Shown here in pieces: positions 19,873-43,918 of a stretch of 64,000 nt of DNA. Source of the DNA: a virus. Position numbers and translations under genes: made by a program. The notes under the pieces are model-generated. The model did no database searches and was not told where the DNA came from. It saw nothing but the letters and a program-made list of their open reading frames with translations. Where the stretch lies: positions 1 through 64,000 of IMG/VR virus record IMGVR_UViG_3300025012_000054, one strand, 5' to 3'. Each line of letters begins with the position of its first letter. Position 1 is the first letter of the stretch.

Positions 19873-20800
19873 TTTATCTCAATACCGTCCAGGAATTTTA
19901 AAGCTGGTTCATCACCAAGAGCATCTGAGAAAAATAGAGGCAGGTGAAGTCGTTGGGCCAATTCATTTATCCGTGTTCCCAAATAACCGTTGTCAGTTAT
20001 CATGTCCGTACTGTTGCTTTAATAAGACGCTGAGGAATGATGCTGAATTATCACTAGAAGATTTTACAACCGCTATAGATGTGCTTAAAAAATATGGGCT
20101 AAAAGCAGTAGAAATGTCAGGAGGTGGCGATCCGCTGTTATGGTCACATTTTAGTCCAGCGGTTTCTTATGCCTATGATAAGGGGTTGAAATTATCTCTG
20201 GTTACAAACGGTTTAGCTCTTAAAGATATTTTATCGGATATATTGAGTAAATTCAATTGGATTCGCGTATCTATTCAGTCTTTTGAATATGCAAAAAAAT
20301 TAGATTTATCTAATATTCCAACGACAGTAAAAACAAGTATGTCATATATAGTATATGACAATAAAAGTATTGCCGAAATTTCTAAACTATATGATTATGC
20401 CAAAGAAAACGATGTCATCATTAGAGTAACATGTATACGTCCTTGCACATTAGAATTTGAACAACGAGTTTATGATGAAGTACAACGATATGGCAAACCC
20501 CTGATTATGTTCAAGAAAGAACCTGGCGTCGTTGAGGGTTGCTATATGCTGTGGATACGTGCTGCTCTGGATTGGAATGCCAACTTTCTTCCGTGTCCTT
20601 CTATAGAACTTTCTCCTGAATATGCGGGAAAAATTCCTGCTGATTTTGGAGTTTGTAAAGTAGGGGGGATAGAAGAATATCTAATTAATAATAAGCCCCA
20701 TGATTTAGGATATAGGTGCAGTTTTTGTAATTGTGGAAAAGATTCAAATGATTACATTCATAATTTATTACAAAGAATAGAGGATGTGGATTTTGTATAA
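19832..20800 (+). CDS. Radical SAM protein with SPASM/twitch-like C-terminal cysteines
   Basis: CQLSCPYC (CxxxCxxC), SGGGDP, VTNG, C-terminal C...PC...CSFC. Start uncertain. Confidence 0.88.
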   Translation: MLKGWLYLKNNPNDLSQYRPGILKLVHHQEHLRKIEAGEVVGPIHLSVFPNNRCQLSCPYCCFNKTLRNDAELSLEDFTTAIDVLKKYGLKAVEMSGGGDPLLWSHFSPAVSYAYDKGLKLSLVTNGLALKDILSDILSKFNWIRVSIQSFEYAKKLDLSNIPTTVKTSMSYIVYDNKSIAEISKLYDYAKENDVIIRVTCIRPCTLEFEQRVYDEVQRYGKPLIMFKKEPGVVEGCYMLWIRAALDWNANFLPCPSIELSPEYAGKIPADFGVCKVGGIEEYLINNKPHDLGYRCSFCNCGKDSNDYIHNLLQRIEDVDFV

Positions 20801-21434
20801 GGAATTTACTGGCGATTTTTATGATGAGGACTACTTCCAACGCGGGAAGCAGAGTAAAAAAGGGTGGTTGGAGAACTATAGGTTTTTGCCCAGAAGGACA
20901 TTCCGAGAAGCCTTTGGTTTCATAGATTATTTGGGATTAGATGACGACAGCTATGTTCTAGAGGTTGGATGTGCCATGGGGTTTTTGGTAAAATGTTTAC
21001 GAACATTAGAAATAAAAGCGGATGGCACAGATATCAGCACATACGCATTATCTTTTTCTCCCGAAAACTGTTGGAATAGTAGCGATCCTAAAACATGGGA
21101 CGAACATGCGGATACCGGTTATACACATATTATAATTAAGGATATGCTCGAACATTTATCTAAAGAACAACTTCCTGTGATGCTAGACAACTTCGCTAAA
21201 GTTTCTAAAAAGATGATGTGCGTAATCCCGATGGGGGATTTTGGGCGGTATAGGATACCTGAGTATCATTTGGAGATCTCACACCTCATTGCCGAGGATG
21301 AAAAATGGTGGGCTAATGTGTTTGAGTCCCATGGTTGGAAAATCGTTAAACATTGCAATCACGTTCAGTGGATTAAAGACAATTGGCAATATATTAGCAA
21401 CGGCAATCACGTATTTGTATTGGAGCATGAATGA
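20784..21434 (+). CDS. Class I SAM methyltransferase
   Basis: YDEDYF, VLEVGCAMG, GTDISTYA, DMLEHL. True start probably a few codons in. Confidence 0.82.
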   Translation: MWILYKEFTGDFYDEDYFQRGKQSKKGWLENYRFLPRRTFREAFGFIDYLGLDDDSYVLEVGCAMGFLVKCLRTLEIKADGTDISTYALSFSPENCWNSSDPKTWDEHADTGYTHIIIKDMLEHLSKEQLPVMLDNFAKVSKKMMCVIPMGDFGRYRIPEYHLEISHLIAEDEKWWANVFESHGWKIVKHCNHVQWIKDNWQYISNGNHVFVLEHE

Positions 21435-22285
21435 TCACAACTTGGCTAACAGGAAATATTTCAGACCAATTATTTAGGCTTGCTATTTGTCGCACAGTAG
21501 CGGAAAAAAATAATTATAAATATGGTGTAAATAAAAAAACAAGCCATGATTATTTTGGCGGTATAGAGCAAATGACTTTTTTTGAAGATATTAATTATGG
21601 TGAAGAAAATCATATGGAATATGGTGAAACTTTACCAGATGTCGATAATATTTGGGAGGAAAAAAGGGAAGTACATGATGGCTATAATTTCCATCCGTTT
21701 CAACCCGATATTTTTGATGTGTCTCCAAACACTCATATTACGATTTTCTGCGGTCAAGACGCCAACTATCTCAACAAAGAAAAAGTGGCAAAATGGTATG
21801 CGGTAAAAGAAGAAGTTATTAGGGAATCACAGCAATTATTACGAGTAGCGAATATAGAATTGGATGAAAATCTTTGCATCTTGTCTGCAAGGGGAGGGGA
21901 ATACAGAGGTGTTCCGTCCTTGTTTTTAGGTCATAACTATTGGGACAAAGCAATGCAGATTATGTCAAAAAGAAATCCTCAGATGAAATTTATTGTTATT
22001 ACGGAAGATCCGCAATTCTATAAAACATTTTTTGATATTCCCGTAATGCATTTTTCTTGTGCTACAGATTGGTGGATTATCAATAATTGTAAAAACATTA
22101 TTGCCGCTAATTCTGGATTTAATATTTTACCAACCTGGTTGAATAAGAATAATCCCTATGCTGTTGCCCCTTATCTTTGGGCTAATCACAATTACGGAAA
22201 AAATGAAGAATGGGCAAATTCGAATATGAGAAGTTGGGGTTGTTTTAATTTTATGAATAGGGAAGGCGATATTGTTAATATCTAA
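21431..22285 (+). CDS. GT11 (alpha-1,2-fucosyltransferase-like) glycosyltransferase, divergent
   Basis: SARGGEY (HxRxGD variant), VITED, IAANSGF, AP..W. Paralogous to the next gene. Confidence 0.7.
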   Translation: MITTWLTGNISDQLFRLAICRTVAEKNNYKYGVNKKTSHDYFGGIEQMTFFEDINYGEENHMEYGETLPDVDNIWEEKREVHDGYNFHPFQPDIFDVSPNTHITIFCGQDANYLNKEKVAKWYAVKEEVIRESQQLLRVANIELDENLCILSARGGEYRGVPSLFLGHNYWDKAMQIMSKRNPQMKFIVITEDPQFYKTFFDIPVMHFSCATDWWIINNCKNIIAANSGFNILPTWLNKNNPYAVAPYLWANHNYGKNEEWANSNMRSWGCFNFMNREGDIVNI

Positions 22286-23150
22286 TTTTACGGCGGGGTT
22301 CGGCAACCAAATGGCTGTATATGCTATTACTAGGGCTATAAGCGAGCGTAATGGCTACGAGTGGGGGTTTAACCCCGTACCTGAATATGATATGCCCCAC
22401 AACTATCAGTCTGTTCCACAATTTGATTTTCTCGATATTGATTACGGTAAACAACATGCTTATAAACGAGATGAAAATCCTCCATTTATACAACAATATT
22501 GGTTTGAGCGTGTGGAAGAAACTCGCTATCCCGATGGCGATCTATTCCGATATTTTCCCTATCAGCCGGAAATATTTGACATTCCAGATAATACAAAAAT
22601 GTTTATTTCCAACTGCCAAGACGCCCGATATTATGAACCTATAAAAGACAACGTTCGTGAATGGTTTAGAATCAAACCGGAAAATATTAATCGTTATGAT
22701 CAAATATTATCTGGTCTAAATATTGTCTTAGATGATAATTTCTGCGCTATTCATGTACGAGGTAAAGATTTTTGTGGCGACACCAGAATATTATTACCGC
22801 TAGAATATTATCAAAACGCCATGAATATTATGTTGAAGAAAAACCCCAGGATGAAATTTGGGGTCTTGACAGATGACGTAAAGTATGGTAAACTTTTATT
22901 TGGTGATAGCATTCCCGTTATGCAGAATGAATTGGGATGCGATTATTATATTTTTAATGTTGCCAAAAATGTTATATTGTCTAATTCTAGTTTTACCCTA
23001 TTTCCTACGTGGCTGAGTGAAAATCAGCCAGATGTTATTGCTCCCAGATATTGGTGGCGATATAATAATTCCAGAGGGTGGTTGTCTTCTGATATTTGGA
23101 CATTCGGCTATAAATTTTTAGATAAGGATGGCTTATTATATGACAAATAA
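22272..23150 (+). CDS. GT11 (alpha-1,2-fucosyltransferase-like) glycosyltransferase
   Basis: AGFGNQM, AIHVRGKDF, EYYQNAM, LTDD, ILSNSSF, VIAPRYW. Confidence 0.85.
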   Translation: MLISNFTAGFGNQMAVYAITRAISERNGYEWGFNPVPEYDMPHNYQSVPQFDFLDIDYGKQHAYKRDENPPFIQQYWFERVEETRYPDGDLFRYFPYQPEIFDIPDNTKMFISNCQDARYYEPIKDNVREWFRIKPENINRYDQILSGLNIVLDDNFCAIHVRGKDFCGDTRILLPLEYYQNAMNIMLKKNPRMKFGVLTDDVKYGKLLFGDSIPVMQNELGCDYYIFNVAKNVILSNSSFTLFPTWLSENQPDVIAPRYWWRYNNSRGWLSSDIWTFGYKFLDKDGLLYDK

Positions 23151-23880
23151 ATTCAAAATTTATTATCGCGTATCTAGTCGGGGTAATCCGTTGGGACGCA
23201 CAGAACTTTCTAATACGGATCTGTCAGGTATTACTAGGCAAGACTGTTTTCGTAACTTGGTCAAAATATTCGGAACAGAGAATTTAATTGTAATAGCCGA
23301 TAATGCTGACGATGATGTCATATCGTTTTTAGTGTCTGAGGGAATAAAAAATATTGAACGAACATTTTTTGGAAACACGCTTAGTTTTCGCTATATTGTG
23401 GATAGAGCAGTTACAGAATTACAAGATGAAGATATCGCATATTTTGTAGAAGATGACTACGTACACGATTATGACGCCGAGAGAATTATTAGAGAGGGCT
23501 TGGAAATTTCTGATTATCTATCTCTCTATGACAGCATGGACAAGTACAAAGATAGCGATAAAGGCGGCTACAATCCCTTTATTTCTGGCGGTGGAGAAGA
23601 TACAAAAGTAATGATTACAGAAAGTTGCCATTGGAAAAAAACCAATGCAACTACTATGACGTTTGCAGCAAAGATTAAAACGCTGAAAGAAGACTACAAT
23701 GTTATTACAAAATATTGTCCCAATGGCGCACCTCATCCCATGGATTTCTTGATGTTTAGAGAACTGATCACGCAGAAAAATCGCATTCTTATTAATTGTA
23801 TGCCTGGTAAATCAGCACATATTGGATTAGAGATGTCGCCGTTTGTTCCATGGATTTCATTACTAAAAGGAGAATTATGA
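23140..23880 (+). CDS. GT-A fold glycosyltransferase-like protein
   Basis: VIADN, YFVEDDYVH, YLSLYD..DKY, W..T..TTMTFA. Start (ATG 23140 after AAGGATGG, vs 23128) uncertain. Confidence 0.65.
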   Translation: MTNKFKIYYRVSSRGNPLGRTELSNTDLSGITRQDCFRNLVKIFGTENLIVIADNADDDVISFLVSEGIKNIERTFFGNTLSFRYIVDRAVTELQDEDIAYFVEDDYVHDYDAERIIREGLEISDYLSLYDSMDKYKDSDKGGYNPFISGGGEDTKVMITESCHWKKTNATTMTFAAKIKTLKEDYNVITKYCPNGAPHPMDFLMFRELITQKNRILINCMPGKSAHIGLEMSPFVPWISLLKGEL

Positions 23881-24509
23881 GCAAGGACGTTGCTGTTGAA
23901 ATTTTAAAATATTTGAAGTTTAATGACGGCGTGTTTTTGGAGGTTGGAGCGAATGATGGAATTTTCCAGAGTAATTCCTTAGCGTTAGAACGTAATCAAA
24001 ATTGGACAGGCATATTAATTGAGGCGTCACCCTACGCTTATAATCAGTGTTTAGCCAACAGAGATAATGAAAAAAATATTATTATATTTGGCGCATTAGT
24101 TGCAGATGATTATGTAGGAGATACAATCAAGGGCGATTTTAATGGTCATCCCATGGGTAGTATTGGTGGAAAGCGGCTAAATAATCAGGCGAATGCTAAT
24201 ATCGAAGTTCCTGCATATACGATTACACAGATATTAAGTTATTTTGAAATTGAAAAAGTAGATGCAATGTTTATTGATGTGGAAGGCTATGAACTAGAAG
24301 TTTTAAGGGGATTAGATTTCGAAACTTGGAAACCTTCCTTTTTCCTAATTGAGTGGAACAAGGGTGAAGACGAGTTGTTCCCATTTATGGAGTCCAAGGG
24401 ATATGAATGTGTTGGAAATATTTCAGATTTCAATCTTGTGGACGATCCTCAGTGGCCCCAAAACCACCAAGATTTTGGCTTCAAATTAAAGGAGAAAGAT
24501 AATGCCTAA
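23877..24509 (+). CDS. FkbM family methyltransferase
   Basis: FLEVGANDGIFQSNS, WTGILIEA, IDVEGYELEVLRG. ATG 23877 after AAGGAG. Confidence 0.88.
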   Translation: MSKDVAVEILKYLKFNDGVFLEVGANDGIFQSNSLALERNQNWTGILIEASPYAYNQCLANRDNEKNIIIFGALVADDYVGDTIKGDFNGHPMGSIGGKRLNNQANANIEVPAYTITQILSYFEIEKVDAMFIDVEGYELEVLRGLDFETWKPSFFLIEWNKGEDELFPFMESKGYECVGNISDFNLVDDPQWPQNHQDFGFKLKEKDNA

Positions 24510-25323
24510 AGTTTATGATGTAACCACGGGATTTAATGAATTGGATTTATATCTACTGCGTCTCCATATTTTAGATCCCTATGTAGATGAATTTATTTTG
24601 AATGAGTGTACAACAACTTTTACGGGTAAACCAAAACCACTTTTCTTTCAAGAAAATAAAGAAATGTTTAAGGAATTTGAGCATAAAATAATTTATCATA
24701 CATTTGACGAAAATCGTCCAGAATGGGATCAGTGGGATAGGGACAGGATTCATAAAAATGCTGCTATGCAAGCCTTGACAAATTTAGAAGATGATGATAT
24801 AGTTGTCTATGGCGATACGGATGAACTTTGGAATCCAGATGTGGTAAATTTTGATAATATCGATGAAGATACATTGTACATTTGTCATCAATCCTGTTAT
24901 TATTATTTTATTGATTGCCTTTGGGAAAATGTTGTAGATCCTACGGCAATATGGAGAGGTAATAGATATAGTTCTTATAAATTATTGAAACAACATAGTT
25001 TTGATGCCTTTAGAGCATACGATGGATATTTTTTCCAAAATAATTCATTCAAAAAAGAATATATAGATAAAGCGGGTTGGCACTTTTCATTTTTAAATGG
25101 TGCAGAAAATATTAAATTGAAACTAGCGTCATACGGACACTCCGAAATGAACATCCCCGTTATTACAGATAATCTTCAAGCCAACATCGATGCATTACGA
25201 GATCCATTTTTTAGACCTAATTTTAGAATTCGCCCAGTTCCTATTACAACGAAAACCCATCCAAAATATCTAGTTGATCATATTTCAGAATATCAAAAAT
25301 TTATTTATCAAAAAGGAGAATAG
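24502..25323 (+). CDS. GT17-like glycosyltransferase (beta-1,4-GlcNAc transferase type)
   Basis: FNELDL..LRL..L..YVD.F...E...TFTGKPKPL.F, GDTDE, AGWHFSF, KL.SY.H.E. Confidence 0.85.
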   Translation: MPKVYDVTTGFNELDLYLLRLHILDPYVDEFILNECTTTFTGKPKPLFFQENKEMFKEFEHKIIYHTFDENRPEWDQWDRDRIHKNAAMQALTNLEDDDIVVYGDTDELWNPDVVNFDNIDEDTLYICHQSCYYYFIDCLWENVVDPTAIWRGNRYSSYKLLKQHSFDAFRAYDGYFFQNNSFKKEYIDKAGWHFSFLNGAENIKLKLASYGHSEMNIPVITDNLQANIDALRDPFFRPNFRIRPVPITTKTHPKYLVDHISEYQKFIYQKGE

Positions 25324-25326
25324 TAA

Positions 25327-25905
25327 ATGTATCAAGTCAATGTAAAAGTTCAAGGAACATCAGTTATGTTGCAACACCGTTTTCCCATTCCTACTTATGA
25401 GGAGATGGGTTCTGGTGGTACTAAATCAACTGGAGCAAAAGATTATCGAGAAGAATGGCGACAGAGTTTATATGTAGATGATAAAAACGGCGTTTATCAG
25501 CCAGCAAACCATTTTGAATTAGCCATGGTAAAAGCCGCCGTTAACTTTAAGGTTACTGGTAAGCGAGGAAAATCTTATAAAGATATGGTTAGCGCCAATG
25601 TGGTAATAGATCCAGAAAAAATTCTATTTGGTATTGAAAATCCTAAAGATTTAGATACAGATGCAGATAAGCCACTGTATTTGGATTTGCGCCCCGTCGT
25701 AATACAGAGGGCAAGAGTTGTGCGTATTCGCCCAGCATTTAAGCCAGGATGGGAATTGGAGTTTACAATCAATGTTTTGGATAATGAATTACCTGCAAAT
25801 ATGTTACAGGACATTCTGGTTCTCGCAGGAAAAACTGTGGGCATTGGTGATTATCGCCCCAAGTTTGGCCGTTTCTCTGTTGTAAAATTTGATGTGGTGA
25901 AATAA
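25327..25905 (+). CDS. Stand-alone Cas7/RAMP-like RNA-binding protein
   Basis: RRM/RAMP-like order: beta1 VNVKVQGTSVML, GVYQPANHFELAM (cf. RAMP xIPxSSxKG), basic beta-hairpin RPVVIQRARVVRIRP, WELEFTI, helix, and C-terminal glycine-rich loop GIGDYRPKFGRFSV. Confidence 0.7.
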   Translation: MYQVNVKVQGTSVMLQHRFPIPTYEEMGSGGTKSTGAKDYREEWRQSLYVDDKNGVYQPANHFELAMVKAAVNFKVTGKRGKSYKDMVSANVVIDPEKILFGIENPKDLDTDADKPLYLDLRPVVIQRARVVRIRPAFKPGWELEFTINVLDNELPANMLQDILVLAGKTVGIGDYRPKFGRFSVVKFDVVK

Positions 25906-25906
25906 A

Positions 25907-26000
25907 TTTGAGGTTAAGGTGTGGCGAGACTGAAGTAGGTGGTGCCAGGTCAGGTGATGTCTGATAAGGTGTGTTCCGGTCAATTAAGGTATGGCGAGGT
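25907..26000 (+). ncRNA. Pentamer array 1: TTTGAGGTTAA leader + 17 GGY-like triplets separated by NN; candidate guide RNA
   Basis: From 25918: GGT gt GGC ga GAC tg AAG ta GGT gg TGC ca GGT ca GGT ga TGT ct GAT aa GGT gt GTT cc GGT ca ATT aa GGT at GGC ga GGT. Confidence 0.7.
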
Positions 26001-26015
26001 AAAATTTGAAATAAG

Positions 26016-26106
26016 TTTGAGGTTTTGGACTGGGTAGGAGAGTAGCGGTAGGTAGCGGCGAGGTTAGGCAGTGTCAGGTTTGGTCAGGTGAGATAAGGTG
26101 AGGGCA
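26016..26106 (+). ncRNA. Pentamer array 2: TTTGAGGTTTT leader + 16 x (GGN-like + NN); candidate guide RNA
   Basis: From 26027: GGA ct GGG ta GGA ga GTA gc GGT ag GTA gc GGC ga GGT ta GGC ag TGT ca GGT tt GGT ca GGT ga GAT aa GGT ga GGG ca. Confidence 0.7.
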
Positions 26107-26108
26107 AT

Positions 26109-26429
26109 ATAAAAAATAATATTACTAAAACATATTTTGAACTACCCGAATTTCCTGGTAAAAAATTTCCGTGGTATAAAAGACCACCAGTGGATTTATG
26201 GCGAATACTGCGGCAATATGTTTACGAAAGAGATTTGGGCAGATGTCGATACTGTGGCAATGAAACAGAATTAACAGATTGTCATACTCATCACGTATTA
26301 GAATTAAATCAAGGTGGAACCAATCACCCCAGTAATTTAAAAACATCTTGTCGAGACTGTCATAAGAAAAGACATCCGTTTATGATGGACGCCAGAGACA
26401 AGATGAGATTGATTGAGCAAGAAAATTGA
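26109..26429 (+). CDS. Small HNH endonuclease (McrA-like) between pentamer arrays 2 and 3
   Basis: VYERDLGRCRYCG...HTHHVLELNQGGTNHPSNLKTSCRDCHKKRH. The frame is open from 26097, so the start may be ATA 26109 (after AAGGTGAGG) rather than GTG 26190. Confidence 0.85.
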   Translation: MKNNITKTYFELPEFPGKKFPWYKRPPVDLWRILRQYVYERDLGRCRYCGNETELTDCHTHHVLELNQGGTNHPSNLKTSCRDCHKKRHPFMMDARDKMRLIEQEN

Positions 26430-26515
26430 GGTTATGGAGCGGCAGAGTTAGCCAAGGTTATGCTTGGTCTGGTGTGGTAGGGCATGGTTAGGAAAGACCA
26501 GACAAGACGAGGAAT
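26425..26515 (+). ncRNA. Pentamer array 3: ATTGAGGTTAT leader + 16 x (GGN-like + NN); candidate guide RNA
   Basis: From 26436: GGA gc GGC ag AGT ta GCC aa GGT ta TGC tt GGT ct GGT gt GGT ag GGC at GGT ta GGA aa GAC ca GAC aa GAC ga GGA at. Confidence 0.7.
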
Positions 26516-26539
26516 GAATATTTTTATACAGGAGCTTCC

Positions 26540-27157
26540 ATGAAATTAGATAATTTTTTTGAACTGGGATATGTGATTAATCTCGATAAAAGACGCGACA
26601 GATTAGGTGCATGTGAACCTGAGTTTTATAAATTAAACTATTATCCTGAGCGGTTTAGTGCTATTGAGCATGAAAATCCATCGGTAGGGTGTAGACTTTC
26701 TCATTTGGCTATTTTAAAGAAGGCGCTCAAAGAAAACAAAAGTGTTCTTATTATGGAAGATGATCTTCAAATAATAAATTTTGAAGAACATCTTGTAGAA
26801 AAAGTGTTGGATGAACTTTGGGGATTAGATTGGGCTATGATATATTTTGGTGGGAATCTCATGCGCCCATGTTTTCAGGTAAGTGAACATCTTGCCAGAT
26901 TGACACACGCCCAGAGTACGCATTTTTATGGTGTATCAAAACGTTATTTGCCACAAATAGTCGATGTTATAGAAAAAAATGATTATTTTATAGATTGCCT
27001 ATATGCGGATGTGATTGTACCTCAATTGCCTTGCTATATTTCGGTGCCGATGGTTGCCATTCAGAGGAGCGATTTTTCGGATATCGAAAAAATAAATATG
27101 AATTATGACGTTCCTGTAGCCAGATATAATAAACAATTGATTCGGATGAAAAAATAA
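26540..27157 (+). CDS. GT25 family glycosyltransferase
   Basis: YVINLDKRRDR, ERFSAI, GCRLSH, VLIMEDD, W.MIYFGG. Confidence 0.88.
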   Translation: MKLDNFFELGYVINLDKRRDRLGACEPEFYKLNYYPERFSAIEHENPSVGCRLSHLAILKKALKENKSVLIMEDDLQIINFEEHLVEKVLDELWGLDWAMIYFGGNLMRPCFQVSEHLARLTHAQSTHFYGVSKRYLPQIVDVIEKNDYFIDCLYADVIVPQLPCYISVPMVAIQRSDFSDIEKINMNYDVPVARYNKQLIRMKK

Positions 27158-27982
27158 ATGAAAAAAGTCGTTACTGTTATTTTTTCCAAGAATAGGGGTC
27201 TCCAGCTTGATTTGTGCCTGAGAACCCTGCAATTACACTGTGCAGATATCTACAAATCCGCATATGTGAATGTGTTGTATCGAGCAGATGATCATCACAT
27301 GGAATCATACGAAATATTAAAACGAGAATATCCACAGGTAAATTTCGTAGAAGAAAAATCATTTAAGGCGGATCTGCTGAATATTGTACGCGATAAAAGT
27401 GGTATTTTATTCTGTATCGTGGATGACACTGTATTCGTTGAAGATTTTCTTTTGGCTAATATCGTTAGTAATTTGGAAAGTAATCTAGATTGTTTGGGAT
27501 TCAGTTTACGTCTTGGCTTAAATTGCTCGTTCTGCTTTCCATACGGCAAACTCCAAGACATTCCTGCTACTACAAAAATAGACAATGGAGTTGTTAATAA
27601 ATATAATTGGCAAACGGCGCAACTGGACTTTGGCTACCCACTCGAACTATCAAGTTCTGCTTACAGGCTGGAAGATATAATGGAAATACTAGATAATTGC
27701 GATTATCATAATCCAAATTCCCTAGAGGATAGTATGACCAGTTGCCACATTCAGGTAAAACCAAATTTATTAATGTATGATAAAAGCGTGGCGTTTAGCA
27801 ATCCAATCAACAAAGTCCAACTTGATCATCCTAATAAAAGCGGCGATATAGATGCAGACGTATTGTTACAATATTTTATGGCTGGTTATAGAATAGACGA
27901 CAAGCTGTTCAATCATTATAAAAACAGCGGAGCACATGAATTAGTAGATATAGAGGTGAAGAAAATATATGAGCAGACATAA
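27158..27982 (+). CDS. GT-A fold glycosyltransferase-like protein
   Basis: IFSKNR.LQLD..L, F.VDD.VF, FSLRLG.N, DFGYPL, NPN.LE. Confidence 0.6.
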   Translation: MKKVVTVIFSKNRGLQLDLCLRTLQLHCADIYKSAYVNVLYRADDHHMESYEILKREYPQVNFVEEKSFKADLLNIVRDKSGILFCIVDDTVFVEDFLLANIVSNLESNLDCLGFSLRLGLNCSFCFPYGKLQDIPATTKIDNGVVNKYNWQTAQLDFGYPLELSSSAYRLEDIMEILDNCDYHNPNSLEDSMTSCHIQVKPNLLMYDKSVAFSNPINKVQLDHPNKSGDIDADVLLQYFMAGYRIDDKLFNHYKNSGAHELVDIEVKKIYEQT

Positions 27983-28802
27983 ACCAAAACAACACACTAA
28001 AGAAAGCAATCCTTTGATTTCTGTGATTGTACCAGTTTATAATCGCAAAGAGTGGATACCCTTAACGCTGGAATCCCTGCGAAGTCAAACTTACAAGAAT
28101 GTCGAAGTGGCAATTTGCAACGATGGCGGAGAACCTATTGATGATATTCTAAGTCAATTTCAGGACTTGAACATTATTTATACTGCACACGCCGAGAATA
28201 AAGGGCTTCCTGCTGCCAGAAATACTGCCCTTAAAAGCTGCCATGGTGAATTCATAAGTTTTCTCGATTCAGATGATCAATATATGCCTTTGGCGCTAGA
28301 ATTTAGAATGTGGAATATCAAAAAATTAAATGCGGAAATAGTTTATACACGATCTTTGAGGAATATATATGATCCCATCATACAAGATAACCAAAAGAGA
28401 TATCGTCTCAAACATCAGGAACTATACTGGAACTCAGAATTTTCTCGTGACCAAATATTATGGATGAATATCTGTCCTTGTTGCAATACTCTTTTTTCAA
28501 GAAAATCGTGGGAAAAAACAGAATATTGGCTCGATGAAACGTTAACGTCAACCGAAGATCATGATTTTTGGATTGCATTAAGCAGAAAATTCGATTTTTA
28601 CAATCTCTCATTGTTAGACGCGGAATGCAGTTATAGGTTAGAGCCTGGAGGACAAATGACCGGCAATCGTGATTTTTCACAGAATTGGATTAAAGTCTTT
28701 AAGAAATGGAGGAACACCGCCGAGAATCTGACCCTTGTTACAAATACCCAAAACGCAATTTTAAAACAGGCGGGAATCGACCCTGAAAAATATGGCTTAT
28801 AA
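27969..28802 (+). CDS. Glycosyltransferase family 2
   Basis: ISVIVPVYNR, QTY.NVE..CNDGG, NKGLPAARN, FLDSDD, EDHDFW. Confidence 0.92.
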   Translation: MSRHKPKQHTKESNPLISVIVPVYNRKEWIPLTLESLRSQTYKNVEVAICNDGGEPIDDILSQFQDLNIIYTAHAENKGLPAARNTALKSCHGEFISFLDSDDQYMPLALEFRMWNIKKLNAEIVYTRSLRNIYDPIIQDNQKRYRLKHQELYWNSEFSRDQILWMNICPCCNTLFSRKSWEKTEYWLDETLTSTEDHDFWIALSRKFDFYNLSLLDAECSYRLEPGGQMTGNRDFSQNWIKVFKKWRNTAENLTLVTNTQNAILKQAGIDPEKYGL

Positions 28803-29757
28803 AAGCAAATATATCAATCTCGACCTAACAGGGATGAGATTTGGAAAATTAACGGCAATAAAAAAATCGGAAACGAAAAAAACGCGAAAAACAACTTGGG
28901 AATGCTACTGCGATTGTGGAAATACCTCTTTAAGAACAGTTACAGAATTGCTGGTTTTAAATCTCCAAACATGTGGAAAGTGCCATAGAAATAAAGATAT
29001 TACAGGAAAGAGATTTGGTAGTTTGATAGTTCTATTCCTTGATCATTTTTATAGAAAACAGCCTTATTGGAAATGCAAGTGTGATTGTGACAACACTACT
29101 GTTGTTCGAGGGAGCAGTCTGGCGTCGGGATACACTAGGAGTTGTGGATGTAGGAGAATTATTGTTGGCAAAATGAGAATGATTGATTTAACTAACAAGA
29201 AGTTTGGTAGATGGACGGTGTTATCTTTAGCAGAAAGACCAGAAAATATAAAATCAGGAATATATTGGAATTGTATTTGCGATTGCGGAAATCCAGGTAT
29301 TATTAGAGGAGCAAATTTAGTAAACGGAAACACAATTTCTTGCGGATGTTACCTTAAAGACCATTTTGAGTCAGGACTCGAAAAAGCCAACATTCATAGG
29401 GCGTACATGTCATATAAAAAATCTGCAAGAAATAAAAATCAAGAATTCGAGTTAACTGAAAAAGATTTTTTATATTTGGCAAAACAAAATTGCTTTTATT
29501 GTAACGCTCCTCCTTCTAATATACAAAAAGGCGGAATGAATAGTGTTTTTTATTATTCTGGAATGGATAGGGTTGACAATACAAGAGGATATACTTTGGA
29601 TAATGCTGTTCCCTGCTGTAAAGAATGTAATATAGGTAAAAAAGCAAAAACCAAAGAAGAATTTTTAAATTGGATTAAGAGAATATATATGCATTCTATT
29701 CTCAATAAAGATGAAAAAGAAAATCCTGTAAGCCAATATAAAGCAAAGGAGAAATAA
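28792..29757 (+). CDS. Homing-endonuclease-like HNH protein with three tandem Cys-rich (W.C.CDCG..SCGC) repeats
   Basis: Three D.T..(R/K)FG.(L/W)..W.C.CDC repeats, then CFYC..GMDRVDNTRGYTLDNAVPCCKECN. Confidence 0.85.
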   Translation: MAYKSKYINLDLTGMRFGKLTAIKKSETKKTRKTTWECYCDCGNTSLRTVTELLVLNLQTCGKCHRNKDITGKRFGSLIVLFLDHFYRKQPYWKCKCDCDNTTVVRGSSLASGYTRSCGCRRIIVGKMRMIDLTNKKFGRWTVLSLAERPENIKSGIYWNCICDCGNPGIIRGANLVNGNTISCGCYLKDHFESGLEKANIHRAYMSYKKSARNKNQEFELTEKDFLYLAKQNCFYCNAPPSNIQKGGMNSVFYYSGMDRVDNTRGYTLDNAVPCCKECNIGKKAKTKEEFLNWIKRIYMHSILNKDEKENPVSQYKAKEK

Positions 29758-29759
29758 AT

Positions 29760-30875
29760 TTGGATATCGTAATGGTTTTCGCAGATTCGCCTGGTGAATT
29801 AAATTGTTCCATCCATAACATTTTAAATCCGGCAAAAGCAATTAATAAACTAGAAGGGCATCATGTCGATACATTTTTTATCAATGATTTTAATACCAAT
29901 ACAGAGGAGGTTCAAAAGGCTTGTGAAAAAGCAGATATTATCGTAATTGAACGCAATTTGTTTGGCGATGCCCTGGTAATGGAAATGTTTTGGTGGGTTA
30001 GAAATAAGACAATAGCGGTAATATTTGACGATGCCTATCATGTTATTGAGCCGGAAAACGTAGCCCATGGCTTCTGGCACGAAAGTCAGATAATGACCAA
30101 GAATGAAGACAATACGCTGAATACCCTGACTGTTGTGCCAAAGACGTTGACGCAGTTACGCAGGGGCGTTCGCACAGCTAAGGGCATGATTGCGCCATCT
30201 AAGGTGTTGACAGATGATTGGATGGCATATACAAAAACATATCGCACCCATAACTACCTGGATTTGAATCGCTACCCAGATGATACGCAGCCATTATTTC
30301 CCCACGATGACATTGTAATAGGCTGGTGTGGGAGTATGTCGCATGTTTCTTCTTTTACGGATAGTGGCGTTTTACCTGCTCTTACCTATGTGGGTAGAAA
30401 ATATCCTAATGTTAGAATTATGTGCGGTGGTGACAAAAGAGTTTACGATAAAATCAATCTTCCCGAAGGCAAGAAATTCTTCTCACCGTTTGTTCCAGAA
30501 GAACAATGGGCGTCCCTGTTGAAAAGCATTGATATTGGATTAGCCCCTTTGAGCAGTGAGTTCGACAAAAGGCGGTCATGGATTAAAGCCCTGGAATATA
30601 TGATAATGAAAACTCCATGGATTGCCACCAATTTCGAGACCTATCATGAACTCGGCGAGTATGGAACACTGGTGGAAAACGGCGTAGATAATTGGAAGAA
30701 GGCATTAGTGGACATGATCGAAAATATAGAAGATGCTCGTAAACTAGCAAACGGTAAAGCCTACGAATTTGCCTTGGAACAAACTTACGAAAAAAATATT
30801 CATAAACTATTGGATGTGTACCAACAAATTATCAGTTCTCCAGATCGTGATGACGTACATGATTACGGTAAATGA
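29760..30875 (+). CDS. GT-B (GT4-like) glycosyltransferase
   Basis: ADIIVIER, IFDD, IGWCGSMSH, IDIGLAPL...F..RSWIKALEY. Confidence 0.8.
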   Translation: MDIVMVFADSPGELNCSIHNILNPAKAINKLEGHHVDTFFINDFNTNTEEVQKACEKADIIVIERNLFGDALVMEMFWWVRNKTIAVIFDDAYHVIEPENVAHGFWHESQIMTKNEDNTLNTLTVVPKTLTQLRRGVRTAKGMIAPSKVLTDDWMAYTKTYRTHNYLDLNRYPDDTQPLFPHDDIVIGWCGSMSHVSSFTDSGVLPALTYVGRKYPNVRIMCGGDKRVYDKINLPEGKKFFSPFVPEEQWASLLKSIDIGLAPLSSEFDKRRSWIKALEYMIMKTPWIATNFETYHELGEYGTLVENGVDNWKKALVDMIENIEDARKLANGKAYEFALEQTYEKNIHKLLDVYQQIISSPDRDDVHDYGK

Positions 30876-31048
30876 TTGGATAATCAAAACAGATATACAA
30901 ATAGAAGAAAAACGTGCTCGTCATAAAAATTCACTCTATGTCATGGAAGCAAAAATAATAGAAGATGGAATTAGTATCGAAGAACGTATAAGCGAATATT
31001 ATGACGCCAAAAATATCTGTACTAAAATCAAACGATGCCCGCTAAAAC

Positions 31049-32121
31049 ATGCTTATGAAATCGCCCTGTGGCAGAAAATATAAGCCCCGAAGAACGTGTA
31101 AACATTGTGGTGGACTTTTGGTACAAATAGACGAGATGATGCTGCCCACTATTAGCCTGTTGAATAAGAAGGGATATCGTACCAGATTTTGTTGTAGCGG
31201 TCACGTATATGATGATTTTATTCATCCTTTTCTCTTGTTTCAAACATATGTGATTTTCGAAAAAAACATTATACTTCCATCAATACCTAAAGATTTTAGA
31301 TACGATGGCAACTATGAAGACGGAAGATCTTGCATTAGAAAAGATTCATATGATGGATGGACTGATAGTTATGCCCATTGCGAGTTACTAAGAGGAAATT
31401 TATCGCTGATAGAATGGGCAACAATGTTACCACAACATAATGAAAGCAACATTTTATAAAGGAGTTATATGTTGGAAAAAGATAAAGATCCAACCGGTAA
31501 AGATATAAAGAATATGCTATCAGATTTTCACGCTGAAACAGAAACAGACCTGGAAGAAAATCTGCTGAAAGATTGGAATATGGTAAGATGTGCGATATGC
31601 CATAGGCAACTGGATTTATTGGTAGCCGCTTATTTAGACGATGAACCCGTACACCAATATTGTTTATAGGATGCCGATATGATTACCTTGGATTCAATAT
31701 TACAAATGATATATGATAAGCATGAATCTCTGGAGCGCAAAATGTCCGAAGGCAAATCTCGCGGAATGACCCAGATGGAAGAATTCGGATTACTGAGCGA
31801 GGATGTAGCTACTATGGAAATCTACAACACTATAATGAAAGATGTTATTGATTGCAATAAAGATTTAAACAACTATTCGGATTGGCTAAAGACAGCCTAG
31901 GAGAAAAAATGGACACCATAAAATTTGAATTAAATACAGACACGGATTACCGCGTTGTTGCCGAAATATCTTTAAACGGCGTCAGTATTGATGACTATCT
32001 CATTGCTTTCAAAGCGTTTCTAATCGCTTGTAGTTTTACCGAACAAACAGTAGAAGAAATCCAAATGATGGAAAACGCCAGATATATTATCGACAGAGAA
32101 CAACAAGAAAACAATATTTAA
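31049..32121 (+). CDS. Hypothetical proteins (31049-31459 Cys-rich, 31469-31669, 31679-31900, ~31909-32121)
   Basis: Co-oriented ORFs. 31049 has CKHC and LNKKGYRTRFCCSGH motifs. Confidence 0.65.
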
Positions 32122-42775: not shown

Positions 42776-43918
42776 TTGAAAGTTATTGACAGCGAGAAAT
42801 TACCAATCAAAATGTGGCTAACAGATATTGAAGATGGCGCTTTACAACAAGCAAAAAACTTAGCCAATCTTCCATTTGTCTATAAATGGATTTCTATTAT
42901 GCCAGATAGTCACCAAGGTTATGGTATGCCCATTGGTGGCGTCATGGCTACCCAAGGCGTGATAGTCCCAAATGCGGTTGGTGTGGACATCGGCTGTGGT
43001 ATGGCTGCGATAAAAACTTCTCTGACAGATATTTCTACAGAAGAATTAAAATTGGTTATGGGTAAAATCCGTGATGTTATTCCTGTGGGATTTAATCATC
43101 ATCCAGAAGATCAAGAATGGGACGGATTCGATGACGCTCCAGATATTCAGACCATCCAGGATCAACTTCCGTCAGCCCGAAAACAGTTGGGAACGCTTGG
43201 GGGAGGAAACCATTTCATTGAAATTCAAAAAGGATCAGATGATCATATATGGATTATGATTCATTCTGGAAGCCGTAACTTTGGCAAGAAAACCGCTGAT
43301 ATATACCACAAACTTGCGCAAAAATTATGCGACAGATGGCATGTGCAATTACCGGATAAGGACTTGGCTTTTCTTCCTATTGAGACCTCGGAAGGAAAAG
43401 AGTATTTCCAAGCAATGAAATATTGCTTAAATTTTGCCGAGGGTAACAGGGATTTGATGGCTAGACGTACTCTACTTTGCTTATCTTCTGTAGTGGATTG
43501 CTATATGGAAGATGAAATTGATATTCATCATAACTACGCCGCATTTGAAAATCATTACGGCAAGGATGTTTTGGTTCATCGTAAAGGTGCCACAAAAGCC
43601 ACTCTGGGGCTACGAGGAATTATTCCTGGTTCTATGGGAACATCCAGTTATATCACCAAAGGATTGGGTAATCCAGAAAGTTTCGAATCTTGTTCCCATG
43701 GCGCAGGTCGTAGAATGGGACGCAAGGATGCCGTAAGAACCTTAAACCTGAAAGATGAACAAGATAAAATGACTGGTATTGTGCACGGCTTGCGAGATGC
43801 CTCTAATTTAGATGAAGCACCAGGTGCATACAAAAACATTGATGAAGTTATGAAAAACCAAGAAGATCTGGTTGAAATTAAAATATCACTAAAGCCTTTG
43901 GCGTCAATCAAAGGTTAA
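42776..43918 (+). CDS. rtcB: RtcB 3'-phosphate/5'-OH RNA ligase
   Basis: MPDSHQGYGMPIG, VGVDIGCG, LGTLGGGNHFIE, HSGSR, HHNYA, HRKGAT, IPGSMG, SCSHGAGR, DEAPGAYK. TTG 42776 after AAGGAG preferred. Confidence 0.95.
   Translation: MKVIDSEKLPIKMWLTDIEDGALQQAKNLANLPFVYKWISIMPDSHQGYGMPIGGVMATQGVIVPNAVGVDIGCGMAAIKTSLTDISTEELKLVMGKIRDVIPVGFNHHPEDQEWDGFDDAPDIQTIQDQLPSARKQLGTLGGGNHFIEIQKGSDDHIWIMIHSGSRNFGKKTADIYHKLAQKLCDRWHVQLPDKDLAFLPIETSEGKEYFQAMKYCLNFAEGNRDLMARRTLLCLSSVVDCYMEDEIDIHHNYAAFENHYGKDVLVHRKGATKATLGLRGIIPGSMGTSSYITKGLGNPESFESCSHGAGRRMGRKDAVRTLNLKDEQDKMTGIVHGLRDASNLDEAPGAYKNIDEVMKNQEDLVEIKISLKPLASIKG

Follow-up and report, generated by a model that had tools for sequence, protein, structure and literature searches.

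A phage-borne VIPR cassette with a predicted HNH partner and a guide that matches a neighboring gene in cassette-free relatives

Systems of the Viral Interference Programmable Repeat (VIPR) kind comprise Vipr, a minimal, lone and ancestral RAMP protein with an RRM core, a G-loop, and a thumb, together with vrRNAs with 9–16 YNNGG repeats (bioRxiv 10.64898/2026.04.26.720920,.720927, 2026.10.15.759431). According to the available parts of these preprints, to which all statements on published VIPR below refer, one protomer covers each repeat, the GGY triplet is held by the protein, and the NN dinucleotides read DNA while skipping one base per unit. In the Vipr filament of Escherichia phage SUSP1, the NN pairs read double-stranded DNA at two bases of every three. 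A skip at the wobble position is the pattern of natural VIPR targets, for which the published match threshold is 80%. The vrRNAs described were RNAs of around 100 nt that co-purified with Vipr, and seven types were distinguished with differing vap genes, some of them nucleases, HNH being named in a figure legend. Here, we analyzed the first 64 kb (64,000 nt, referred to as the window) of a phage genome that forms a single contig of 91,455 bp with 37% G+C (IMG/VR record IMGVR_UViG_3300025012_000054), which carries a locus with a vipr gene, three vrRNA arrays, and an HNH nuclease gene. Judged by its sequence, this locus is a member of the VIPR family. It sits as a cassette between two glycosyltransferase genes, and its first guide matches the allele of the upstream gene that is found in cassette-free relatives.

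A preliminary description, made from the letters of the window alone, had named a VIPR architecture and warned that novelty had to be checked. The warning was justified: VIPR has already been published in preprints, so that the kind is not new and the locus adds a member to it.

The vrRNA1 guide and the empty site

The features of the locus are given below in window positions.

24502..25323, plus strand: GT17 glycosyltransferase gene, the upstream flank (Pfam PF04724, E 5.1e-24; alignment A2; tblastx synteny)
25120..25172, plus strand: own copy of the vrRNA1 target within GT17, KLASYGHSEMNIPVITDN, matching at 25/36 NN positions
25324..26539, no strand assigned: VIPR cassette of 1.2 kb, present or absent as a whole block (alignment A2, tblastx)
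25327..25905, plus strand: vipr, encoding a 192-aa Cas7-like RAMP with the G-loop GIGDYRPKFGRF, stop codon TAA (phrog_4652, E 4e-21)
25908..26000, plus strand: vrRNA1, leader TTGAGGTT followed by 17 NN-GGY units
26017..26106, plus strand: vrRNA2, leader followed by 16–17 units
26121..26429, plus strand: vap, encoding a predicted HNH nuclease of 102 aa, between arrays 2 and 3 (Pfam HNH PF01844, E 5.9e-11)
26426..26515, plus strand: vrRNA3, leader overlapping the HNH stop codon, around 17 units
26540..27157, plus strand: GT25-like gene, the downstream flank (Pfam PF01755; alignment A2)
27116..27165, plus strand: own copy of the weak match to vrRNA3, at the 3′ terminus of GT25, 22/34

Six relatives without the cassette were syntenic with the window phage in tblastx comparisons, and Vipr, HNH, and arrays were not found in their fetched DNA. 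The stop codon of GT17 abuts the ATG of GT25 in three of these siblings (L166, L167, and L170), and L164 has around 65 bp at this point (alignment A2). On this alignment, the cassette is a precise insertion between the two glycosyltransferase genes.

Guides were scored as in the VIPR preprints, with the NN dinucleotides joined by one wildcard base, on both strands, and against a null of shuffled guides. The vrRNA1 guide reads AA.GT.GA.TG.TA.GG.CA.CA.GA.CT.AA.GT.CC.CA.AA.AT.GA. A metagenome scan with its nine central NN dinucleotides returned 12 loci, seven of which lay in one gene, the homologue of the GT17 gene directly upstream of vipr; six of the seven reached 29–30/36 and the seventh reached 27. 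When the region of ±1.5 kb around the junction was scored in the six relatives, the guide again reached 29–30/36, at −193 to −245 from the junction (around 200 bp in five of them), while shuffled guides gave 20.3 ± 0.9 and none of 200 shuffles attained the observed score. The scores in the six relatives were 19–22 at skips of 0, 2, and 3 nt, a comparison that is not independent of the one-base skip, since a 1-nt-skip seed from this very guide had served to find the siblings; the synteny of the siblings and their empty site do not depend on this seed. The matched stretch encodes K-I-x-S-Y-G-H-Q-E-L-N-V-P, with the NN dinucleotides on codon positions 1 and 2 and the skip on the wobble base.

In the window phage, the corresponding site scored 25/36, which made it the top 1-nt-skip match of that genome but left it below the 80% threshold; its mismatches break the central run, which the siblings match perfectly. 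At codons 25141–25146, within the H-Q-E motif, the GT17 protein of the window phage carries S, where 20 of its 26 nearest homologues have Q, and the two closest GT17 homologues with an alternative residue are likewise non-Q. Judged from these alignments, the address of vrRNA1 is the sibling GT17 allele beside the empty insertion site, and the allele of the carrier is recoded. P0243 and P0244 are GT17 homologues with non-Q alleles, and five close GT17 homologues besides the own protein carry S, T, I, or V at the Q position. Such S/T/I/V alleles may be resistant alleles.

The preliminary description had expected gapped targets for the arrays. This held for vrRNA1, whose target stands far above shuffled guides at a gap of 1 nt; no target was found for vrRNA2, and vrRNA3 gave a weak match only. 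That a target would adjoin the insertion site of the cassette itself, as seen in the siblings, had not been foreseen. The weak match of vrRNA3 at the 3′ end of GT25 scored 22/34 in the window phage vs. 23–24/34 in four siblings, and its first ten NN dinucleotides scored 13/20 vs. 17/20 in L166 and L163. A 9-NN vrRNA3 seed gave 41 matches in genome_contigs, the best of which, at 27/34 in Methanococcoides homologues, was judged to be due to chance. No self-target was found for the guides, and the 80 homologous loci contained no target for any of them. In IMG/VR, six scans with exact seeds (8–9 NN, from each half of each guide) returned chance-level matches only, the best at 26/36 for the full guide, and a 10-NN vrRNA1 seed found nothing in genome_contigs.

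The DNA around the cassette has a patchy similarity to the sibling L170. Identity is 87–97% up to around position 24430 and 63–76% from there to the cassette; downstream, it is 66% in GT25, undetectable up to 28476, and 91–94% again from 29745. The cassette consequently sits where the glycosylation island is locally diverged, in a tract spanning 24430–29745. This tract fits a co-converted flank, without proving it.

Vipr, the arrays, and the HNH partner

The protein encoded by vipr had been described as a Cas7-like RAMP, and this assignment was borne out by profile and structure searches. A profile of 31 homologues (A1) matched the PDB entry 36pp, "SUSP1 Vipr protein", over the full length (E 3.7e-14, residues 2–186 vs. 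2–188). The structure prediction and Foldseek search that had been proposed for 25327–25905 yielded a Cas7/Csm3 fold: the AlphaFold (AF2) model had a predicted local distance difference test (pLDDT) score of 82.6, and its best Foldseek matches were Cas7/Csm3 subunits from complexes of types VII and III (E 1e-7, TM 0.5). The SUSP1 residues that contact GGY (H17, R138, D177, W178, and R179) align with H17, R135, D175, Y176, and R177, all of which, Y176 excepted, are invariant or nearly so in the 31 homologues; at Y176 the aromatic character of W178 is retained. The identity to felixounavirus-type Vipr homologues is around 30%. One protomer per pentamer, a GGY handle, and a gapped target spelled by NN, as the preliminary description had proposed, were resolved for the homologue SUSP1 by cryo-electron microscopy in a preprint.

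The arrays were as first reported in every particular, with three 5-nt-phased arrays behind a 192-aa reading frame, a shared leader, and an HNH gene. Each array has 17–18 units in a single constant 5-nt phase, read as NN followed by GGY. Among the 52 units, GG is present in 32 and the full GGY in 25, and the remainder are one-base variants. The G content is 41% in the arrays vs. 20% in the genome. A caller for phased GG found exactly three arrays in the whole genome of 91,455 bp, compared with 0.15 per genome in 20 block-shuffled copies. Phased same-strand arrays, whose presence beside homologues had been proposed as a check, directly adjoin vipr in 78 of 80 homologous IMG/VR viral loci, and among close relatives the NN dinucleotides differ while the leader stays.

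The leader octamer TTGAGGTT occurs at 25908 (2 nt past the vipr stop codon), 26017, and 26426. Every array, the first one after the vipr stop codon included, is preceded on its 5′ side by a conserved leader, which reads AAATTTGAGGTT and, in more distant relatives, TTTGTGGTT. The distance from the GG of the leader to the first GG of the array is 6 nt rather than 5 in all three cases (25908–25920, 26017–26029, and 26426–26438). This offset places the leader outside the repeat register, as a 5′ element of its own that may serve as a processing or capping site. At the other end, the 3′ tail with a pseudoknot that characterizes type II was not found, and the arrays run out into unrelated AT-rich sequence. 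The missing tail excludes type II but not VIPR, because the architecture varies between types according to the preprint.

Rfam gave no match within 24800–27200, and promoter-like and terminator-like sites were not above the shuffled expectation. The claim that the locus lacks CRISPR and cas elements stood with respect to repeats, as no CRISPR-type repeats were found across the 91-kb genome; no cas genes were seen in a search that was not exhaustive.

The second protein of the cassette had been suggested as an optional effector, and it proved to be a conserved partner gene in its clade. Among the fetched loci from viral contigs, all those with a Vipr of around 55% identity or more have an HNH homologue just downstream of vipr, whereas the more distant loci all lack one, and the identity of the HNH proteins tracks that of Vipr. 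The motif CxxC..HH..N..N..CxxCH..H is invariant in 13 HNH sequences (alignment A3). When Vipr and HNH were both supplied as alignments, complex prediction gave an interface score (ipSAE) of 0.62 vs. 0.02 for the best control, a mark attained by 58 of the 80 solved complexes and by 2 of the 110 mismatched pairs. The runs agreed in at least 92% of the contacts, with a partner pLDDT of at least 81. The model supports binding of HNH to Vipr, and taken together with the conservation it marks the predicted nuclease as a true VIPR partner. An unrelated selfish insert within the VIPR locus was also considered for HNH, and was ruled out by its co-conservation with Vipr, the matching identity, and the fixed position.

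The start codon of the HNH gene is ATG in ten relatives, ATT in the window and in L003, and ATA in L001. The first standard start in the window is the GTG at 26190, and the 23 residues upstream of it are conserved as protein (region 26097–26192). Because of this conservation, the gene probably starts at a weak non-canonical codon and runs from the ATT at 26121 to 26429. Such a start may keep the nuclease at a low level.

Other genes code for a DNA polymerase of phage type, a primase-helicase, RtcB, an RNA ligase, and a recombinase resembling integrases. In the phage collection, megablast with window positions 20000–32000 gave no similar record, and the identity of the polymerase to any record there does not exceed 39%. 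The exact DNA of the phage was present only in groundwater metagenome runs of one study. On these grounds, the source is an uncultured phage.

HNH-bearing cassettes in other contexts

Of the 12 other loci in the HNH clade, 11 share only vipr and HNH with the window genome. Since their flanks are unrelated, the cassette moves between contexts, and at least 12 unrelated ones were counted. Guides of three of these loci matched their own flanks, with scores of 33/46 for L033 (z 7.5–8.6), 28/40 for L009 (z 5.4–5.9), and 22/28 and 23/32 for L012 (z 4.7–6.1). All of these partial matches fall in the gene that abuts the cassette, where they lie in an open frame and place the NN dinucleotides on codon positions 1–2. 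By comparison, z values of at least 5 were obtained for 1 of 223 guides from 67 non-HNH loci. The best match on the own contig lay less than 300 nt from the cassette for 5 of 27 guides, vs. 0.41 expected (Poisson P 7e-5).

The related phages G006 (the contig of L033, 36626–38300) and G009 (the contig of L013, 48444–48740 and 56575–57800) carry the VIPR-HNH cassette at different loci. The guide of G006 scored 36/46 in G009 vs. 33/46 in its own genome, and that of G009 scored 32/52 in G006 vs. 29/52 in its own. For the L033 flank, the peptides of the closer homologues P0122 and P0194 would allow up to 41/46, while the homologue G001 (53% identical), tried as a target, scored 27/46.

A vrRNA on its own was observed in L003 (3456–3540), where a leader with 15–17 units and no adjacent vipr lies exactly between the GT25 stop codon and the next ATG. 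GT25 and the next gene abut at this site in the window, L170, and L164. The solo guide scored against the next gene, 55–100 nt away, 24/30 in L164, 22/30 in L170, and 20/30 in L003 itself. Wherever both were compared, which leaves out L009 and L012, the empty-site alleles fit the guides better than the carrier alleles in these alignments, with G009 reaching only 78% for the L033 guide. An 11-unit guide at position 25064 of G011, the 122-kb phage contig behind L001, was also observed to match the rtcB gene of the window phage (window positions 43496–43527) at 19/22 (z around 3), a short and borderline match that may be due to chance.

Possible function and relation to known systems

The reading that we favor is an RNA-guided cassette for the exclusion of siblings or for homing, to which we assign a probability of about one half; cutting by HNH is the presumed step in it. 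Based on the SUSP1 structure, Vipr protomers would coat each vrRNA, one per pentamer, holding GGY and exposing NN. In a mixed infection, the vrRNA1 filament would bind the sibling GT17 allele, where the Vipr-bound HNH protein would nick or cut. Repair from the cassette-bearing genome would then remove the rival allele and copy the cassette together with its resistant flank. The outcome, marker exclusion or homing, would resemble that of free-standing phage homing endonucleases, except that the address is held in RNA. Tentatively, and at somewhat less than even odds, HNH-type VIPR cassettes in general could be homing elements, or gene drives, that occur naturally in phages and are programmed by RNA, with every vrRNA gene lying beside a resistant allele of its own target. 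In that event, changes of NN would let the cassette, or a solo vrRNA such as that of L003, colonize new loci.

Several observations weigh against such a cassette. The sibling matches of vrRNA1 amount to 81–83%, barely above the published cut-off of 80%, and the siblings were recovered with the guide's own seed, as described above. For vrRNA2, no target was found with IMG/VR seeds, with a 10-NN metagenome seed, or at the sibling junctions, and the vrRNA3 match in the siblings, at only 68–71%, is not claimed as a target. Flank matches are absent for most guides of the related cassettes, and the empty-site comparison has the gaps given with it. The DNA identity to the siblings near the presumed cut site, at 63–76%, is low for efficient homologous repair. 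Furthermore, the characterized VIPRs repress transcription, on either strand and without cutting, as SUSP1 does against its satellite.

The last point leads to the foremost alternative, in which the vrRNA1 filament only blocks transcription of the sibling GT17 gene, HNH aids DNA binding or is unrelated, and the nearness of target and cassette is incidental. It agrees with the behavior of every experimentally characterized VIPR, and the position of the target within a coding region, with the skip on the wobble base, is as published. However, the HNH catalytic residues are invariant across the 13 clade members, which indicates selection for nuclease activity, the preprint infers target destruction for the nuclease-bearing types, and silencing alone leaves the guide matches beside the cassette in several unrelated contexts (the 5 of 27 guides above) unexplained. 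We regard silencing alone as unlikely.

A further alternative is a general weapon between phages without drive, whose guides would hit assorted competitors that are simply destroyed by cutting and which would spread only by ordinary recombination, relatives being the main competitors. The VIPR preprints describe competing phages, satellites, and other VIPR loci as targets, and the lack of flank matches for vrRNA2 and for most guides of the related cassettes would follow naturally. Such a weapon could aim anywhere in 90 kb, yet the best matches of five guides fall within 300 nt of the cassette, and the cassette-bearing genome has the poorer-matching allele in three comparisons, so that this explanation also seems rather improbable.

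Self-regulation, in which the own-flank matches are real targets and the filament tunes its own glycosylation operon, is highly improbable: own-flank matches of 69–79% are statistically real in four loci, but the empty-site allele always matches better where both were compared, the mismatches at the own GT17 site break the central run, and the preprint reports no self-target of at least 80%. There is similarly very little to recommend a decaying or inactive remnant, which the canonical GGY in only 25 of 52 units, the loss of GG in 20 of 52, and an HNH gene lacking a standard start at the conserved position might suggest, because both proteins, Vipr and HNH, are intact and retain every key residue, internal degeneracy is frequent in working vrRNAs according to the preprint, the ATT or ATA start is common to three relatives and thus conserved rather than a lesion, and vrRNA1 retains a target at 81–83%.

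With respect to a sibling-directed cassette, the locus extends the preprints in three ways: a nuclease-bearing VIPR is found in a phage genome instead of a host defense island, it takes the form of a discrete, exactly bordered cassette that recurs across many unrelated genomic contexts, and its guides point at cassette-adjoining genes as they occur in cassette-free relatives. The words "homing" and "gene drive" are not present in the available parts of the VIPR preprints and of the preprint recovering VIPR arrays, and flank-directed, cassette-like behavior of VIPR appears not to have been described in the literature searched. If HNH cuts, the cassette would be an RNA-addressed homing endonuclease, so that VIPR would share the logic by which TnpB/IscB and phage homing endonucleases act, and it would provide a small programmable nuclease for double-stranded DNA with a gapped code. 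The sibling and own alleles of one 53-bp site form a ready test pair.

Among known systems, the Cas7/Csm3 backbone of class 1 complexes shares the fold, the G-loop, and one subunit per fixed RNA step with Vipr. It differs in the step, which is 6 nt there and 5 nt here, and the present locus has no CRISPR array and no visible cas1, cas2, cas5, or cas6, within the limits of the cas search given above.

Type II VIPR, known from Escherichia phage SUSP1 and a Pseudomonas fulva prophage, is closer. It has a homologous RAMP protein, with conserved GGY contacts, and same-strand pentamers, and its targets are likewise read with a 1-nt skip at the wobble position by a phage-borne system aimed at a competing relative. 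Unlike type II, the present locus has a conserved 5′ leader and no shared 3′ tail or pseudoknot, an HNH nuclease where type II has a winged-helix protein, and a target that adjoins the insertion site of the cassette. The guides of 17–18 units also exceed the 9–16 of the preprints. The nuclease-bearing types III and V resemble the locus in having a predicted HNH partner and guides that match viral sequences. They were found mainly in host defense islands and were read in the preprint as antiviral host immunity, whereas the present locus and the 13 relatives fetched lie on viral contigs, the present one in a phage genome with a polymerase and a primase-helicase of its own. From the preprint text and the legend of its fig. 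S21, we infer that the HNH Vap class is type III, which is not a formal type assignment.

The arrangement is also like that of free-standing homing endonucleases, as a small nuclease insert lies between conserved genes, is present or absent among close relatives, and has its putative target in the neighbor gene of the empty allele, a few hundred base pairs off, while the carrier allele would be resistant; here, the target is a guide match and not a demonstrated cleavage site. Free-standing homing endonucleases of phages are exemplified by the Seg and Mob proteins of T4 and by the HNH class. Their address is contained in the DNA-binding domain of the nuclease, whereas in the present locus it would be supplied by a separate RNA–protein filament.

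The TnpB and IscB proteins of IS200/IS605 elements, studied by Meers and colleagues in 2023, reportedly cut the empty donor site, so that the transposon is kept. These proteins are unrelated to Vipr, being single effectors of the RuvC or HNH kind with contiguous guides, while the present locus uses a gapped code and involves no transposase. In both cases, however, a guide RNA inside a mobile element would address the element-free allele beside the insertion point.

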